Virus genome (UHGV): UHGV-0122804
Length of the DNA: 17,535 bases
DNA from: a virus
Strand: one strand, 5' to 3'
Shown here: piece after piece, positions 3,187 through 17,535 of the stretch
Position numbering within the stretch: the stretch's first letter is position 1
Layout of the letters: every line of letters starts with the position of its first letter
Translations under genes and position numbers: made by a program
The notes under the pieces: model-generated
What the model was told of the DNA's origin: nothing
The model's input: only the letters and a program-made list of their open reading frames with translations
Databases searched by the model: none

Positions 3187-4505
3187 AAAAGTTGATCGCA
3201 CTTAAGCATAAGCTGGACGAAATGAAAGCTATGGGAACCAATGCAAAAAAAGAGGCATTGGCCAACATGGATGACTTTGAACAAAGCATGGTTTCATTGA
3301 TGCTCAACCCTTTCATCCGTTTTGGGGTAAAAAAATACAAAGTGGCAGAGCCGCTTAGTGAGTCCGTCCCAAGTGACGAAAAAGCCATTGATGTACTGAA
3401 TCAGCTGGCCTCTCGCGAGCTGACGGGGAACGCAGCAATAGCTGCTGTTGAGTCTATCGTGGCGTCAATGTGCGCTGATGGGCAGGACGTCTTCCGTCGT
3501 TTCCTCTTAAAAGATCCGAAAGCTGGCGTTGGGATTAGCCTATGTAACAAGGTTTTTGAAAATCCCATTCCGAAATTCGAGGTGCAGCTGGCGTCACCGT
3601 ATAAAGAAAAAGGCGACAAATACCCCTTCAAGCCAAATCCTAAAGCCAAATGGCCGATGATTGGCAGCCTTAAGCTCGATGGTTTGCGAGTAATTTGTGA
3701 GGTTATTGTTGACGAGGAAGAGGTTAACTTCCTTTCTCGTACTGGTAATCCAATCACGTCTCTCGATCACCTAAAGCCAGCCATGCTCGAATTAGGCAAA
3801 CTTTCAGGCCACAAACACATCTTCTTCGATGGTGAAGGAACAGCCGGTTCATTTAACCAGTCCGTATCTGCATTGCGCAAAAAGAACGTGCAGGCAATTG
3901 GCGCTATTTATCATGTTTTCGACTTCTTCCTACCGGAATGGCGAGCACAGGCTAAATCCAAAGAGTATGCAAAGACAGGTATGAAGCTGAAAGAGCGCCT
4001 GGCTATGCTGGTGGCGTTGTTCAAAAACGATCGCAGTGAAGGCTACACACAAGACATTCACCTGCATCCGTTCTATATCATCCATAGCCACGAAGACTTC
4101 ATCGAACGCTTCATGAAACGCCTGGACGATAACGAAGAAGGGGAGATGGGCAAAGATCCGAACTCTGTTTACGAGTTTAAACGTACCCGCAGCTGGTGGA
4201 AGTTAAAAGACGAAGATTCAGAAGATGGTGAAATTATCGACTTTGAGCCGGGCGACCCGGACTCTGGTTTTGCCAACACACTTGGAAAAATTGTTATTCG
4301 TCTTGAAAACGGCGTCATCGTTCGTGCGAGCGGCATTAAGCATAAATATCTGGACGAGATCTGGAACAACAAAGAGAAGTACCGTGGTCGTATTGTCGAG
4401 GTTCATTGTCACGAGAAAACACCGGACGGCAGCTTACGCCACCCACGACTGAAATGGCCGCGTTGCTTACGCGATACCGAAGATCGAATCGGAGATAAAG
4501 AATGA
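3183..4505 (+). CDS. ATP-dependent DNA ligase
   Basis: Motif I KLDGLR (adenylation lysine), FFDGEG (motif III-like), EGEMGK (motif IV-like), WWKLK (motif V). SD ggagg upstream. About 440 aa, consistent with phage ligases. Confidence 0.85.
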   Translation: MKKLIALKHKLDEMKAMGTNAKKEALANMDDFEQSMVSLMLNPFIRFGVKKYKVAEPLSESVPSDEKAIDVLNQLASRELTGNAAIAAVESIVASMCADGQDVFRRFLLKDPKAGVGISLCNKVFENPIPKFEVQLASPYKEKGDKYPFKPNPKAKWPMIGSLKLDGLRVICEVIVDEEEVNFLSRTGNPITSLDHLKPAMLELGKLSGHKHIFFDGEGTAGSFNQSVSALRKKNVQAIGAIYHVFDFFLPEWRAQAKSKEYAKTGMKLKERLAMLVALFKNDRSEGYTQDIHLHPFYIIHSHEDFIERFMKRLDDNEEGEMGKDPNSVYEFKRTRSWWKLKDEDSEDGEIIDFEPGDPDSGFANTLGKIVIRLENGVIVRASGIKHKYLDEIWNNKEKYRGRIVEVHCHEKTPDGSLRHPRLKWPRCLRDTEDRIGDKE

Positions 4506-4717
4506 TCGTATTAAGTAAACGGGAGAAAGAAACGCTTCATGAAATAAGTAAGTGGCCGGAGTTCCCTGAGTACTGGAAGCCTAAAACGCGAGCTAAGTTA
4601 GAGCGTTTAGGGTTGGTTGCAAACGTTTCTGAAACGTGGTGTTCGGCCAACTACCAGTTAACTGATAAAGGGAAAGTATTGCTACAGCAATTAGTAGAAT
4701 CAGGAGTGTTAATATGA
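4502..4717 (+). CDS. hypothetical small protein (71 aa)
   Basis: ATGA overlap with the ligase stop and with the next ORF start, suggesting translational coupling. Confidence 0.5.
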   Translation: MIVLSKREKETLHEISKWPEFPEYWKPKTRAKLERLGLVANVSETWCSANYQLTDKGKVLLQQLVESGVLI

Positions 4718-4736
4718 TTCCATACATCTCATTAGC
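4709..4736 (+). repeat. Motif B copy 1 (TTAATATGATTCCATACATCTCATTAGC), overlapping the start codon of the 4714 ORF
   Basis: Core ATGATTCCATACATCTCAT is identical (19/19) to the reverse complement of 15839-15858 and matches 5710-5728 at 18/19. Confidence 0.7.
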
Positions 4737-4866
4737 TTTTATGGGTGGCTTCCTTATCGGCTTCGGCATCTGTCGTGATTTAATTAAGCAGGAACTTAAA
4801 ACCAAAACACTGTGCATCGGAAAGCGTGTGTATCGGGTAGTTCATGAAACAAAGGTGAAAAAATGA
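4714..4866 (+). CDS. small predicted membrane protein (50 aa), absent from the supplied ORF track
   Basis: ATG preceded by aggag (4701-4705). Hydrophobic N-terminus ISLAFMGGFLIGFGIC. Stop TGA overlaps the ATG of the next ORF (4863). Confidence 0.45.
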   Translation: MIPYISLAFMGGFLIGFGICRDLIKQELKTKTLCIGKRVYRVVHETKVKK

Positions 4867-5153
4867 GCGATTTAACTTCTTGGGAATGGTGGTTGGCCAC
4901 CTATTTCTTAGCGGCCGGAGTCGCATTCGCCTTTTACGTAGGTCAGTTAGTCGTAAAACTGTTGCTGATTAAATTTGCTAGTCATAAACGTATCGATGAT
5001 GGTCTGTGGCGTCTTGGCACCCTGGTGGAAACTCGCTACGGGCAACTTAAGGAGAACGAAACCATTACTATCCAAGCGAAACGATTCACTGCCACCATCA
5101 CAAGAACACCTAGTCGTAGAGTGGCCTTGATCAAAAAAGTCACAACCGAATAA
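4863..5153 (+). CDS. hypothetical protein with N-terminal transmembrane helix (96 aa)
   Basis: Hydrophobic segment WEWWLATYFLAAGVAFAFYVGQLVV. Coupled to the upstream small ORF. Confidence 0.5.
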   Translation: MSDLTSWEWWLATYFLAAGVAFAFYVGQLVVKLLLIKFASHKRIDDGLWRLGTLVETRYGQLKENETITIQAKRFTATITRTPSRRVALIKKVTTE

Positions 5154-5162
5154 AAATACAAT

Positions 5163-5200
5163 GATAAGTATTTACTTACTTATCTTTTGTGTATAAGATG
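5163..5200 (+). promoter_or_regulatory. Motif A copy 2: GATAAGTA-N6-TACTTATC then TTTTGTG and TATAAG, at the head of the 760-bp non-coding region
   Basis: gataagta (5163-5170) and tacttatc (5177-5184) are exact reverse complements. -10-like TATAAG at 5192-5197. Confidence 0.5.
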
Positions 5201-5548
5201 ACTTTGTTTTCGTTGAGACGCGACTGTTTGAACTTAAATACAAGTGCAAACGAAGAAGTCTATCTGGCAGTAGCCTAATAAGCCAAACACCAGCGAGGTC
5301 AGTTTCCAGCCTCGTTACCGAAATGGGACACACTGAGCGAGTGTGATTGCAAAACGCAGGTAGGGCATCTGGTTAACCAGTGCCCTTACCAATGAGGTAA
5401 CAGAATGGGCGGTTGGGTTTTATGTCCAACACATCCCGGCTCCCAAAGGCCCGACCGTCTATCCTGTTACGTCATTTCTGTTACTTATGTCGTTTAGTTT
5501 TGGGTTAAAAATGGCGACGTAACCCGGCTGGTTAGGTGAGCCAGCACG

Positions 5549-5641
5549 CAACGTTGAGACCACTGGTTTTTGCATCACAGGGGCAGAACCGGCAGACATG
5601 TAGGGCCAAGTACATTAATCCGTTCAGTGGTCTCAACGTTG
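5549..5641 (+). other. Perfect 17-bp inverted repeat enclosing a 59-nt loop
   Basis: caacgttgagaccactg (5549-5565) is the exact reverse complement of cagtggtctcaacgttg (5625-5641). Confidence 0.6.
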
Positions 5642-5705
5642 TGGTCACGGATTCATTATCCTTCTGGTTATAGCCATTGTTGTCACTGCCCCGTGGCCAC
5701 AACGA

Positions 5706-5733
5706 TTAAATGATTCCATACATCTAATTAGAT
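5706..5733 (+). repeat. Motif B copy 2 (TTAAATGATTCCATACATCTAATTAGAT) in non-coding DNA
   Basis: Shares about 26 nt with copy 1. Followed by the perfect palindrome atctaattagat (5722-5733). Would encode only MIPYI-stop. Confidence 0.7.
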
Positions 5734-5913
5734 CTGAATGAAAACTCTCCTCAACTCTCGGAGAATATTTGAAGATCTTGGCTTGTAAGCGTTTGGTGAA
5801 CACGTAAAGCACAAGTGGCAGGAAACGGTAGGACTGCTGCGAACGACACCGGTGAATCGGCGATACAGCCCCACAAGTCCGTGAATCGACAGAGGCTGAC
5901 GGTGTCAACCTTA

Positions 5914-5988
5914 GATGGTGTAGCTCAGTGGTAGAGCGGTTGACTGTTAATCAACTGGTCGGTGGTTCGAATCCACCCACCATCGCCA
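5914..5988 (+). tRNA. tRNA-Asn (anticodon GUU), 3' CCA encoded
   Basis: Hand-folded cloverleaf: acceptor GATGGTG/CACCATC, D stem GCTC/GAGC, anticodon stem GTTGA/TCAAC with loop CTGTTAA, T stem GGTGG/CCACC with loop TTCGAAT, discriminator G then CCA. Differs from E. coli tRNA-Asn as I recall it. Confidence 0.93.
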
Positions 5989-5989
5989 A

Positions 5990-6072
5990 CACAGCGCTGA
6001 ACGGTTTGGAGTTCGCCACCACCATCCGAACGGAAAGACTCCGCAAATGTCGCCAGACCGTTCAGCGCTGTG
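5990..6072 (+). ncRNA. Candidate structured RNA element directly 3' of the tRNA (20-bp stem with one G-U pair)
   Basis: 5990-6009 pairs with 6053-6072: 19 Watson-Crick pairs plus one T-G that is a wobble only in the + strand transcript. Loop contains an inner gttcg/cgaac hairpin. Confidence 0.4.
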
Positions 6073-6136
6073 ATAGACACGTTCTTAACCATTGCTTCTT
6101 AGCATCGTAGCAACACTTTTTTCAGCGCAAATAATT

Positions 6137-6160
6137 AAAGGGGCTTCGGCCCCTTTTGTA
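6137..6160. terminator. Bidirectional rho-independent terminator
   Basis: GGGGC-TTCG-GCCCC stem-loop, with TTTT downstream on + and an A-run upstream that gives TTTAATTATT on the - strand. Sits between the tRNA unit (+) and the 3' end of the - strand gene. Confidence 0.8.
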
Positions 6161-6272
6161 AGATTAGCAAAAAAGAACAATATTACTTGAAAAAAAAGAC
6201 AAAGTTAGTCAATTTCATTTAATAACACCAATGTCATAATCGAGGACCTTGCTCCTCTGCTTAATTAAACCA

Positions 6273-15414: not shown

Positions 15415-15618
15415 GTGCGTAAAGGATGTTTCGGCTCTCTTATCGCTGCTTCTGAAACTGGTAAGGCTTGTCTGGTGTGTCCAGACAAGCCCGATTGTCA
15501 CCAATCAGCAAAAGAAGTTGCGATTTCGATGCATGGGAAGTTCGTAGGCTTCCCCAATGACAAAATCAAAAAAACCAGAAAGGTAAAAACACATGAAGGC
15601 ACTGATGGTTCGAACTGA
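15415..15618 (+). CDS. hypothetical small Cys-rich protein (67 aa), GTG start; overlaps the dnaE start by 26 nt
   Basis: CLVCPDKPDCH cluster. Doubtful as a real gene because of the overlap with dnaE and the non-ATG start. Confidence 0.3.
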   Translation: MRKGCFGSLIAASETGKACLVCPDKPDCHQSAKEVAISMHGKFVGFPNDKIKKTRKVKTHEGTDGSN

Positions 15619-17535
15619 CTTCTCACTTGGGGAGTCGGCTCTAAAAGCAGAAAACGCGGTGAAGATTGCCAGAGAAGCTGGCTACACCGCTGTAATTTCA
15701 GCAGATAGCATGAATATTGCGAGCGTTATTCCACTACAACGTGCCGCTGGTGACGACATGGCGGTTATTTGTGGTGTGAAACTAAACATTGTTGATGATC
15801 CCACATACGAGCACCGGGCTAAACTTGCTAAAGAATCTATGAGATGTATGGAATCATTAGAGCGAGGACGTAACTACTCGTTTACCGCTCTAATTAAAAA
15901 TGAGAAAGGATATCGCGACATCTGCGAACTAATGACGGCGGCCAACACACGAGAACAGTTCTACTTTGTACCGCGTCTCTCGCTCGAACAGTTGGTTTCT
16001 ACATATGCCAAAGGCAACATCATCCTGCTTACTTCCGACATCGGTAGCGTGTTCCAACGCAACGATTTTGCAAAAATCATAAGCACACTGATTACAGCGG
16101 GTGGAAAAGACAACTTCTATAGTGTGGTTTATCCGCACCCTACCCCATTCTACGACCAGATTAACGTCCGGGCGATGAAAGTCGCCAGCGCATTGAAAAT
16201 AGAGCCAGTGGCGTTCTATCCCGCTTATTACGAATCGATCGACGATGCAGACATTAAAGACATTGCGCACATGGTTACGAACAACATCAAAATCGACCAG
16301 CCGCATCGTCTGCGTATCCCCCACCAGCGAGATAACGCCGTCAATGGTCGCCGCCATCTCCTTGAGGCGCTTAAAGCCTTCTCCGTTCGCATGGATGTGC
16401 CGGTAACAGCTGCAATGGCCTCAACAACGCAGGATACCATTATCGATGCCTGCACATGGCGCTGGCATGAATTGCCGCCAGCACTGCCAAAGATGGCAGA
16501 CGACGAGCCTGCAACGCTGATGAAACTGGCTGTTGCAGGGCTGCGTAAACGTCTTACCACAAAAGAGTTTGGCTACACACCACCTGCTTCTGAGAACAGG
16601 GTTTATGTTGAGCGGCTAAAGTACGAAATGGACACGCTGACTCGCCTGGGATTCTGTGGTTACTTCCTGATGGTGCGCGATCTGATGAATCATAGTCGTG
16701 AAACTGGCATTCCCGTTGGGCCTGGTCGTGGTTCCTCTGCCGGTTCTCTGGTGGCGTGGTGCATAGGCATAACCAACGTCGACCCAATCCGTCACGGTCT
16801 TCTGTTTGAGCGTTTCATCAACCCTGAGCGTCTCGACTTGCCGGATGCGGACTTGGACTTCAGCCAGGCACGTCGCCATGAGGTGATCGAGTATCTGAAT
16901 GAACGCTACGGCGAAGATTACGTTGCAGGCATTCCGAACTTCACCTACCTGGGCGCAGCCTCTGCACTACGTGATACCGCTCGTATTTATGGTGTGGAGT
17001 CCGCAGATATGGCGGTATCAAAAGAGCTGAAGAACGTCGAGGATGATAGCCTTCCATTGGAGGAGCTGCGCGAACAACTGGCAAGTCTCGACAAATACGC
17101 AACAAAATATCCTGATGCATTCAATGCAGCCTGCAAGTTACAAAGCCTTATGCGTGGCTTTGGTAGACATGCGGCAGGGATGATCGTAGCAGGTGTTCCT
17201 CTGACAGAACGTACACCGGTTGAACGCCGTGGTGACGCGCGTTGTATCGCATTTGACAAGCGTTACTGCGAGGCTATGGGCCTAATTAAGCTGGACGTAC
17301 TCGGTCTGGCAACTCTCGATTTGCTCGATAGTGCAAAACGCTACATAAAAGAGAACACAGGTGAAGATATCAATCTTGATGCCATTTCTCTTGAAGATCG
17401 CAAGGTGCTGGATGGTTTTGCTGCTGGGTACACTCAAGGTGTTTTCCAGCTTGAATCAGGCCCAATGCGCAAGCTGCTTAAAGATTTAGGTGGTGGAATT
17501 GAGCCAATGAGCTTTAAAACGGTTGTTGCTACGAC
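15593..17535 (+). CDS. dnaE: DNA polymerase III alpha subunit (DnaE-type), N-terminal about 647 aa; 3' end cut by window edge
   Basis: Frame stays open to the window end. GPGRGSSAGSLVAWCIGIT, LLFERFINPER, PDADLDF, GRHAAGMIVA, GVFQLES match E. coli DnaE catalytic-core blocks as I recall them. N-terminal PHP-like region lacks the usual His residues. SD aaagg before the ATG. Confidence 0.9.
   Translation, partial: MKALMVRTDFSLGESALKAENAVKIAREAGYTAVISADSMNIASVIPLQRAAGDDMAVICGVKLNIVDDPTYEHRAKLAKESMRCMESLERGRNYSFTALIKNEKGYRDICELMTAANTREQFYFVPRLSLEQLVSTYAKGNIILLTSDIGSVFQRNDFAKIISTLITAGGKDNFYSVVYPHPTPFYDQINVRAMKVASALKIEPVAFYPAYYESIDDADIKDIAHMVTNNIKIDQPHRLRIPHQRDNAVNGRRHLLEALKAFSVRMDVPVTAAMASTTQDTIIDACTWRWHELPPALPKMADDEPATLMKLAVAGLRKRLTTKEFGYTPPASENRVYVERLKYEMDTLTRLGFCGYFLMVRDLMNHSRETGIPVGPGRGSSAGSLVAWCIGITNVDPIRHGLLFERFINPERLDLPDADLDFSQARRHEVIEYLNERYGEDYVAGIPNFTYLGAASALRDTARIYGVESADMAVSKELKNVEDDSLPLEELREQLASLDKYATKYPDAFNAACKLQSLMRGFGRHAAGMIVAGVPLTERTPVERRGDARCIAFDKRYCEAMGLIKLDVLGLATLDLLDSAKRYIKENTGEDINLDAISLEDRKVLDGFAAGYTQGVFQLESGPMRKLLKDLGGGIEPMSFKTVVAT
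15839..15858 (-). repeat. Motif B copy 4, inverted, inside the dnaE coding sequence
   Basis: atgagatgtatggaatcatt is the reverse complement of AATGATTCCATACATCTCAT; it encodes MRCMES in DnaE. Confidence 0.7.

Follow-up and report, generated by a model that had tools for sequence, protein, structure and literature searches.

Isolated single-arm copies of a lox-like recombinase core site in an SSU5-like phage-plasmid

The window analysed here, a 17,535-nt stretch of viral DNA (UHGV-0122804), is part of an SSU5-like phage-plasmid and is about 94% identical across the stretch to Escherichia phage Cyrano (pLF82). Its gene order is helicase, primase, ligase, small open reading frames (ORFs), a 760-nt non-coding stretch, tRNA-Asn, a variable cargo and int, which encodes a tyrosine recombinase (Int), followed by a convergent XRE repressor gene, cobT, cobS and dnaE. 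A first-pass annotation of the window had reported two near-identical direct repeats flanking a 1-kb segment, and both are present: the exact shared stretch is ATGATTCCATACATCT (16 nt, at 4714-4729 and 5710-5725), and the 15-mer ATGATTCCATACATC occupies 4714-4728 and 5710-5724, in each case on the plus strand. The claim that such repeats are beyond chance was borne out, as there are five matches in the window at up to three mismatches against 0.16 expected, and none of 200 shuffles got to five. These two copies are here called sites A and B. The other three matches had gone unrecorded in the first-pass annotation: two of them are the arms of a 13-7-13 palindrome (9796-9828), and the third is on the minus strand (15843-15858). 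The genome-wide search for the 13-mer proposed in that annotation, run on the complete 108-kb genome of Cyrano at up to two mismatches, returned the five equivalent places and no others.

The palindrome, core site C (9796-9828), is lox-like. It consists of perfect 13-bp inverted arms (9796-9808 and 9816-9828) on either side of an asymmetric 7-bp spacer (9809-9815), reads AATGATTCCATAC-CTACTAT-GTATGGAATCATT and lies 98 nt upstream of int. The remaining copies are isolated single arms. Site A (4714-4728, plus strand), an arm followed by ATC and with no second arm, coincides with codons 1-5 (MIPYI), including the start codon, of orf50 (4714-4866, plus strand), which encodes a hydrophobic 50-aa protein; the overlap with the start of a 50-aa ORF, already recorded in the first-pass annotation, is therefore real, and the ORF belongs to a conserved phage family, phrog_6302. 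Site B (5710-5724, plus strand) has the same sequence, ATGATTCCATACATC, again a single arm with ATC, in non-coding DNA, some 8 nt downstream of the conserved hairpin UUGUGR...YCACAA, which lies at the 3' side of a transfer-messenger RNA (tmRNA)-like gene, and about 190 nt upstream of tRNA-Asn; in one distant locus (L074) the B-equivalent copy is found 14 nt past a tRNA-Gln. Site D (15843-15858, minus strand, AATGATTCCATACATC) occupies codons 80-85 (R-C-M-E-S-L) of dnaE, which starts at 15605; apart from the site, the protein loop encoded there is variable. Site E (10533-10543, minus strand) lies within int over the codons VWNQ and is degenerate in the window, where TGATTCCAAAC is followed by CCC and not by ATC; it is intact (CTTGATTCCATACATC) at the equivalent position in lineages with 85-86% and 56% Int identity. 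No second degenerate arm was found beside A, B or D by inspection. Copy B reads ATG ATT CCA TAC ATC TAA in the window, that is, MIPYI-stop as previously described, without a Shine-Dalgarno sequence, and this short frame is not kept in relatives, in some of which it is MIPYIQ-stop, in Cyrano far longer and elsewhere GTG-initiated. The perfect palindrome reported after copy B, ATCTAATTAGAT at 5722-5733, exists as well and is specific to the lineage of the window, relatives carrying ATCCAATAAGAT or ATCACATTGTAT instead, so that it is probably incidental.

Our main sample of relatives was 71 IMG/VR loci recovered with Int. The region also matched 822 PLSDB plasmids, and species-representative genomes in GTDB gave only four loci, which were in line with the remaining loci. 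C was found upstream of int in 70 of the 71 IMG/VR loci, with invariant arms and lineage-specific spacers (CTACTAT, CTATTAA, TTGTAAG and others). An 11-7-11 palindrome was present 20-120 nt upstream of int in every more distant context fetched, in which the Int homologues are 44-61% identical to the Int of the window (BLASTP). Both arms are TGATTCCATAC in contexts whose Int shares 56% identity or more with that of the window and TGACTCCAGAC at 43-46% Int identity (alignment), while a Photorhabdus element (L087) has an arm sequence intermediate between the two. Int and C are also carried by four non-phage replicons of 106-723 kb with metabolic genes (L084, L085, L086 and L118), which have neither the XRE repressor nor phage genes, and because the two occur together on these ordinary large replicons as well, C belongs with Int. 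Judged by arms that co-vary with Int divergence, C is the cognate core site of Int. The simple anatomy of lox, dif and FRT sites, inverted arms around an asymmetric spacer of 6-8 bp, is that of C and not that of A and B.

The int gene (9927-11030, plus strand) encodes a protein of 367 aa that matches PF00589 (39.5 bits against a cut-off of 27.1) and the phrog_1 integrases (E = 1e-46), and that is the predicted binder of both C and the isolated sites. R185, K211, R284, H307 and Y316 are all present; among 34 homologues R185, R284 and Y316 never vary, and K211 and H307 each reach a conservation of at least 90%. Int is probably catalytically active. Its AlphaFold model (pLDDT 85.2) has a two-domain fold with a core-binding and a catalytic domain, and the best matches of the model are lambda Int on core DNA (E = 3e-7), Tn1549 Int, XerA and XerH, with SroF matched weakly; the Int sequence itself had no match in the PDB.

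The placement of the isolated sites around C is regular. Across 70 loci, the 107 isolated copies left of C are without exception plus-strand and the 78 right of it without exception minus-strand, and the arm is followed by ATC in 177 of these 185 copies. A and B are 986-1025 nt apart in 49 loci, and the intervening 1-kb segment, which the first-pass annotation had proposed to compare among relatives, is present wherever the region was found. B and C are separated by 1.2-5.7 kb, the distance varying with the cargo, C and D by 6.0-6.3 kb, and C and E by 0.7 kb. In the clade to which the window belongs (clade 1) the isolated sites equal the C arm exactly. They are also conserved beyond their surroundings: the 15-mer of site A is the sole invariant run of at least 8 nt in an 860-nt alignment of nine lineages, in which 38% of columns are invariant, and no invariant run exceeds the 16-mer of site D over the initial 900 nt of dnaE in 10 lineages, where the runner-up is 11 nt and only 56 of 300 third codon positions are invariant. 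As each of the two sites is thus the longest invariant run of its region, selection acts on the DNA and not on the protein. In three clades at a greater distance (L074, L082 and L083) the dnaE loop that holds D is wholly different and without the motif, which indicates that the peptide CMESL is not required. D and E share the same nucleotides in different reading frames, and so encode different peptides, and in one locus (L081) the ORF at A begins three codons upstream and the motif begins with GTG, yet the motif is kept. From these alignments, the isolated sites are under purifying selection as DNA. A 9-nt tandem duplication, ATGAGATGT, adjoins site D in one relative (L006 6953-6990, corresponding to 15839-15847 of the window) and adds Met-Arg-Cys to dnaE.

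A second clade of phage-plasmids, comprising loci from Providencia (L082) and Xenorhabdus (L083 and L116) and a fourth locus (L117), has TGACTCCAGAC arms and is without the clade-1 motif; it amounts to an independent repeat of the clade-1 pattern. In its place these elements carry isolated copies of TGACTCCCGATCAT, at 6584 and 13122 in L082, 481 and 13076 in L083, 13006 in L116, and 3193 and 13129 in L117. The plus-strand copy lies directly past the helicase stop codon in three loci, the fourth locus ending short of there, and in all four the minus-strand copy falls within the acidic linker of cobT, which is hypervariable. In this linker, where L082 and L083 are 52% identical, GATCGGGAGTCA is the sole identical run of at least 10 nt. 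The clade-2 isolated sites share both of the arm changes of their clade, C at position 4 and G at position 9, and they are found at positions that are non-homologous to A, B and D, with a polarity that is again inward to C. Compared across both clades, the isolated sites match the arms and track the arm changes, and their polarity is fixed; the clade-2 sites provide the best evidence tying the isolated sites functionally to the Int/C system. In the four non-phage replicons with Int and C, no isolated copies were present within the 6-10 kb fetched on each side, which suggests that the role of the isolated sites is specific to phage-plasmids.

We consider it reasonably probable that Int, the phage-plasmid's own tyrosine recombinase, binds the two repeats as isolated single-arm sites and does not recombine them. 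An Int monomer could bind A, B, D and, in other lineages, E, and strand exchange would be impossible there without a second arm. The isolated sites converge on C, from the plus strand on the left and from the minus strand on the right, and would serve in an architectural or regulatory role and not as crossover points. The suggestion in the first-pass annotation that the repeats are recombinase half-sites thus survives in part: the repeat corresponds to the arms of the Int core site and the isolated copies track those arms, while the shufflon analogy and the 7-bp spacer that were attached to it find no support.

Several observations weigh against this reading. Binding of Int to any of these sites is deduced from sequence alone. 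The clade-2 isolated sites differ from their own arms at two of 11 positions, the ATC extension is absent from the arms of C, and the first His of the HxxR box of Int is an arginine, Arg281. The count of 185 copies of fixed polarity amounts to only about six independent placements, because the loci are related by descent. A phage-plasmid-specific protein could be the binder, because the isolated sites occur in phage-plasmids only. Lastly, SSU5 itself (L002, a Salmonella phage), the sole Int-less lineage available as a natural experiment, retains A, B (with one change, A to G) and D though it is without int and C. SSU5 lacks everything from tRNA-Asn to cobT (L002 13501-13663), that is, the cargo, C, int, the XRE repressor gene and a 70-aa ORF divergent from it. 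The tRNA-cobT junction is unique among the 822 plasmids and the closest relatives are 99% identical, so that the deletion is recent and uninformative either way. By comparison with these relatives, the type phage SSU5 looks like a deletion mutant that lost its lysogeny module.

The copies might be true crossover sites, either of the shufflon (sfx-like) kind to which the first-pass annotation likened them or of a pseudo-lox kind. Int would then invert 10-11 kb, between A or B and D, and so turn off orf50 and dnaE, or would delete the 1-kb segment between A and B. A and D are indeed inverted relative to each other and identical over 20 nt, including ATCTCAT, in both the window and Cyrano, and the sfx sites used by Rci in the R64 shufflon are likewise asymmetric with a single conserved arm. 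Nevertheless, we found nothing to suggest that the copies recombine with one another. The 185 isolated copies of the 70 loci keep to a single arrangement, the second arm is missing, the A-B segment is always there, and no conserved 7-bp spacer follows the arm: only ATC is conserved past it, and in most lineages partner copies disagree in the 4 nt that come next, the 7 nt being ATCCTAT at A and ATCCTCC at D in SSU5, and ATCTCAT and ATCCCAT in another relative (L007). Exact-pattern searches of IMG/VR for the junctions predicted from A x D (GGAGYGTTANAATGATTCCATACATCYCATAGA) or B x D inversion and from A x B deletion returned none, against 28 contigs with the native A junction. An inversion would, moreover, truncate an essential lytic polymerase. 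We therefore find no support for an Rci/sfx shufflon and regard crossover at these copies in any form as very improbable. Compact accessory arm sites of the recombination site do not fit either, as the isolated sites are 0.7-6.3 kb from C and not within a few hundred base pairs of it. If the copies are instead functionless relics, they could be pseudo-attachment scars of past Int insertions, or a duplicated gene start, as had been proposed, that chance or coding constraint has preserved. In two lineages a tRNA-like end precedes B, a classical attachment place for integrases, and copy B opens a dead MIPYI frame. However, the 15-16-mers do not vary, at synonymous positions and in non-coding DNA alike, among lineages with 60-80% identity, the protein loop that contains D is free of constraint in other clades, and the sites arose at different positions with the same polarity in the two clades. 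A gene-start scar in particular is hard to reconcile with a 15-mer that stands alone as an invariant run around A and recurs in other frames in dnaE and int. Relics of either kind seem to us extremely improbable.

Other explanations give the copies a function that does not depend on Int. They might be operators of another protein specific to phage-plasmids that merely resemble the Int arm, the candidates being the XRE repressor and a 71-aa winged-helix-like protein encoded upstream of A. This would account for their confinement to phage-plasmids, all of which have the XRE repressor convergent with int, and for their absence from plain plasmids. Asymmetric 15-mers are, though, atypical for dimeric helix-turn-helix repressors. 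Each of the two proteins was rejected as the binder: the promoter region of the XRE repressor is without the motif and has another palindrome, GGTAAGTGCTTACC, and the 71-aa protein is absent from a locus (L081) that retains A, B and D. The identity with the arm and the co-variation with it would in addition call for coincidence or secondary co-evolution, and we think operators of this kind unlikely. The copies could also act at the RNA level: plus-strand RNAs with A or B would form duplexes of 16-20 nt with site D in the dnaE mRNA and with site E in the int mRNA, and so control translation or decay. On same-strand transcripts A and B have the sense and D and E the antisense orientation, with 16 nt perfectly complementary, A is placed over a start codon and B in a single-stranded linker between conserved hairpins, and the change in copy B of SSU5 (A to G) still allows a G-U pair. 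Such pairing leaves unexplained why the motif is identical to the core-site arms and why arm changes are tracked in clade 2; the clade-2 copies are in quite different transcripts (the intergenic region after the helicase gene, and cobT) with unchanged polarity around C, and C occurs also on plasmids without these genes. We hold RNA pairing to be quite improbable. Two further suggestions of the first-pass annotation find no support. Iterons or a centromere do not agree with five copies in the 108 kb of Cyrano, spread over 9 kb, with repA (60.6 kb), parA (29.3 kb) and parB (105 kb) all far off, and a family of sigma-70 promoters does not agree with a promoter/terminator scan that detected no promoter-like site in 4400-6300, nor with the location of A, D and E inside ORFs; a different repeat family, described below, takes up the promoter positions between genes. 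A pairing of B with an upstream -10 box, given by RNAalifold, was judged spurious, and a mosaic boundary at B was ruled out, as the cargo shared with another relative (L057) begins at the first base of the tRNA.

If the isolated sites do bind Int, the question is what they might do. We speculate, with much less confidence than we have in binding itself, that Int is dual-purpose, recombining at its core site and also binding polar single-arm sites that lie a few kilobases away to either side, within genes of lytic replication. A left site paired with a right one has exactly the relative orientation of the core arms, and the pair could form a split partner that synapses with C. Such a partner, unable to recombine, might loop out or insulate the lysogeny and cargo region, or might hold Int inactive. 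Alternatively, the isolated sites might be polar barriers around the lysogeny region, to replication forks or translocases converging on the resolution site. The arrangement seems to have come about at different positions in two clades and is absent from ordinary plasmids with the same recombinase, which would suit a phage-plasmid-specific layer of control that links plasmid maintenance and lytic replication.

Homology among relatives starts exactly at the left arm of C, and the far flank falls into 21 unrelated classes while the int-side flank is conserved within lineages. The reassorted flanks and the homology breaks at the left arm are indirect evidence that Int may carry out strand exchange at C, and C, as the flank comparison reads, is the edge of the main cargo hot spot. 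In 10 of the 21 left-flank classes CAGA[AT]T is found at exactly -24/-25 from the core, against 0.35 expected, with an A-rich tract after it; the variant in the window, TAAAATTCAAAAAAC (about 9770-9795), is weaker. Because of this fixed position the functional site probably reaches about 30 nt on the far side, and the recombination site probably includes CAGA[AT]T as an accessory element. The int gene is carried by 252 of 5,426 complete E. coli genomes, and all 255 occurrences are on plasmids and none chromosomal, which makes a plasmid function such as multimer resolution likelier than integration. Most likely, C serves multimer resolution together with exchange between co-resident elements. 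GC skew over the whole Cyrano genome is positive nearly throughout and gives no origin or terminus signal at C.

Other relatives show further rearrangements of this region. Two Buttiauxella loci (L065 and L080) have a deletion from the ligase gene to orf50, including site A, and a deletion of about 2.6 kb in dnaE, including site D; they keep B and a C with a reversed spacer (TTAATAG as against CTATTAA), and the breakpoints of the deletions are away from the motif. This lineage is probably a defective phage-plasmid. The cargo of the window from tRNA-Asn to glutaredoxin (5914-9697) is 96% identical to L057 4893-8682, the backbone of L057 on both sides being 72-76% identical, and the cargo includes an unknown 529-aa ORF on the minus strand and PhoH-like, crAss001_48-like and gp49-like genes. 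In a Xenorhabdus phage-plasmid (L083 14481-16802) the cobS homologue is 773 aa long and has a LAGLIDADG_3 match within its AAA_5 ATPase, which suggests an intein or homing-endonuclease insertion.

Between A and B, in the gap from orf96 to tRNA-Asn, lies the tmRNA-like structured RNA gene mentioned above (approximate ends 5205-5705, plus strand). Its tag frame (5246-5281) is without a start codon and reads GCA AAC GAA GAA GTC TAT CTG GCA GTA GCC TAA TAA, that is, ANEEVYLAVA followed by two stops, which may be compared with ANDENYALAA of the E. coli SsrA tag. The tag varies among lineages (ANEDTYLAVA, ANDNQYLAVA, ANEDAYLAVA, ANDSQYLAVA) with its character preserved, and its reading-frame conservation begins exactly at the GCA codon, just before which an indel of 1-2 nt shifts the frame. 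Many helices of the gene have compensatory changes, for example a 17-bp stem (5549-5565/5625-5641), and the gene has its own promoter-like element. Similarity to E. coli ssrA is limited to the tag region. The gene was not called by ARAGORN (default settings) or by Rfam, neither of which recognised a tRNA-like domain; at gathering and E-value thresholds Rfam returned tRNA-Asn only, plus a weak partial tmRNA match. It is unannotated in RefSeq plasmids. A second repeat family is formed by the palindrome ATAAGTA-N-TACTTAT, followed about 10 nt later by TATAAGAT, at 1811-1834, 2680-2705, 5164-5200, 8025-8055 and 14095-14114 (minus strand). Its members are intergenic and precede plus-strand genes, including the tmRNA-like gene. 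The family looks like a promoter and operator family, possibly the repressor's own, and a related box, TATAAGAAT, is found between C and int at 9860-9868. In the gap between the XRE repressor gene and the divergent 70-aa ORF, the palindrome GGTAAGTGCTTACC and half-copies of it (GGTAAG/CTTACC) are found at 11440-11458, 11562-11570 and 11625-11637; they bear no relation to the A/B motif and are candidate operators of the immunity switch. The XRE repressor of Cyrano has been described as a putative master repressor that is expressed in lysogens (PMC9928086).

In Enterobacterales, SSU5-like phage-plasmids are common, and their maintenance and control have barely been studied. The site, the recombinase and the RNA are not described in the SSU5, phage-plasmid and tmRNA literature that we searched, and a search with the motif sequence found unrelated primers only. 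The present analysis identifies a probable multimer-resolution site of these elements and its recombinase, and the location of sites within the coding sequence of dnaE, orf50, int or cobT suggests that the recombinase may be an architectural or regulatory protein. The question is directly testable in a culturable lysogen, E. coli LF82 (phage Cyrano).

The combination of C and int resembles Cre/loxP of P1, and also Flp/FRT and XerCD/dif-cer, in that a recombinase gene lies beside 13-bp inverted arms with an asymmetric spacer, on an element that persists as a plasmid. The role expected from this comparison is multimer resolution, and the comparison applies to C and not to A and B; the spacer of C is 7 bp as against 8 in loxP, and the fold of Int is closest to lambda Int. 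We know of no conserved isolated loxP half-sites inside P1 genes. The isolated sites themselves are reminiscent of the Rci/sfx system of IncI plasmids, which also has several copies of an asymmetric site with one conserved arm, in both orientations and near a tyrosine recombinase gene. The sfx sites, however, share a 7-bp spacer and bound short invertible segments of one gene that occur in many arrangements, whereas the isolated sites share only ATC after the arm, are 1-11 kb apart in unrelated genes and show no rearrangement. Additional recombinase-binding motifs that lie outside the core and are not exchanged are found in TnpI/IRS of Tn4430, in the third FRT repeat and in the arms of lambda attP. 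These keep within some 100-250 bp of the core and form either a one-sided set or a fixed compact array, whereas the isolated sites are kilobases off, on both sides, in coding sequence and of mirror polarity. In geometry only, the arrangement recalls the Tus/Ter fork trap and KOPS/dif, in which asymmetric sites have mirror polarity on either side of a resolution site; it differs from them in having no sequence similarity, no GC-skew terminus and only one or two sites per side.

Two systems come closer in the way the protein may be used. XerD binds isolated XDS half-sites in the terminus region of Bacillus subtilis, where they are chromosomal and tied to SMC unloading. The likeness is that of a competent tyrosine recombinase placed on half-sites near its own site for a task other than recombination. 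In SPbeta-like phages the tyrosine-recombinase-fold protein MrpR (YopR) binds a dispersed 15-bp element, SPBRE (PMC10516654), and SroF, of the same fold, likewise binds this dispersed element (bioRxiv 10.1101/2025.11.27.690993). MrpR has lost its catalytic residues, is a master repressor and has intergenic sites, whereas Int has retained the catalytic set and possesses a proper core site, a separate XRE repressor is present, and the sites lie mostly in ORFs; a recombinase-fold repressor of the MrpR/SroF type accordingly does not fit Int, and the analogy is one of mode of action only. If our interpretation is true, the isolated sites of SSU5-like phage-plasmids would add to XerD/XDS and MrpR/SroF a further case of this kind, and one in which the protein is seemingly catalytically competent.

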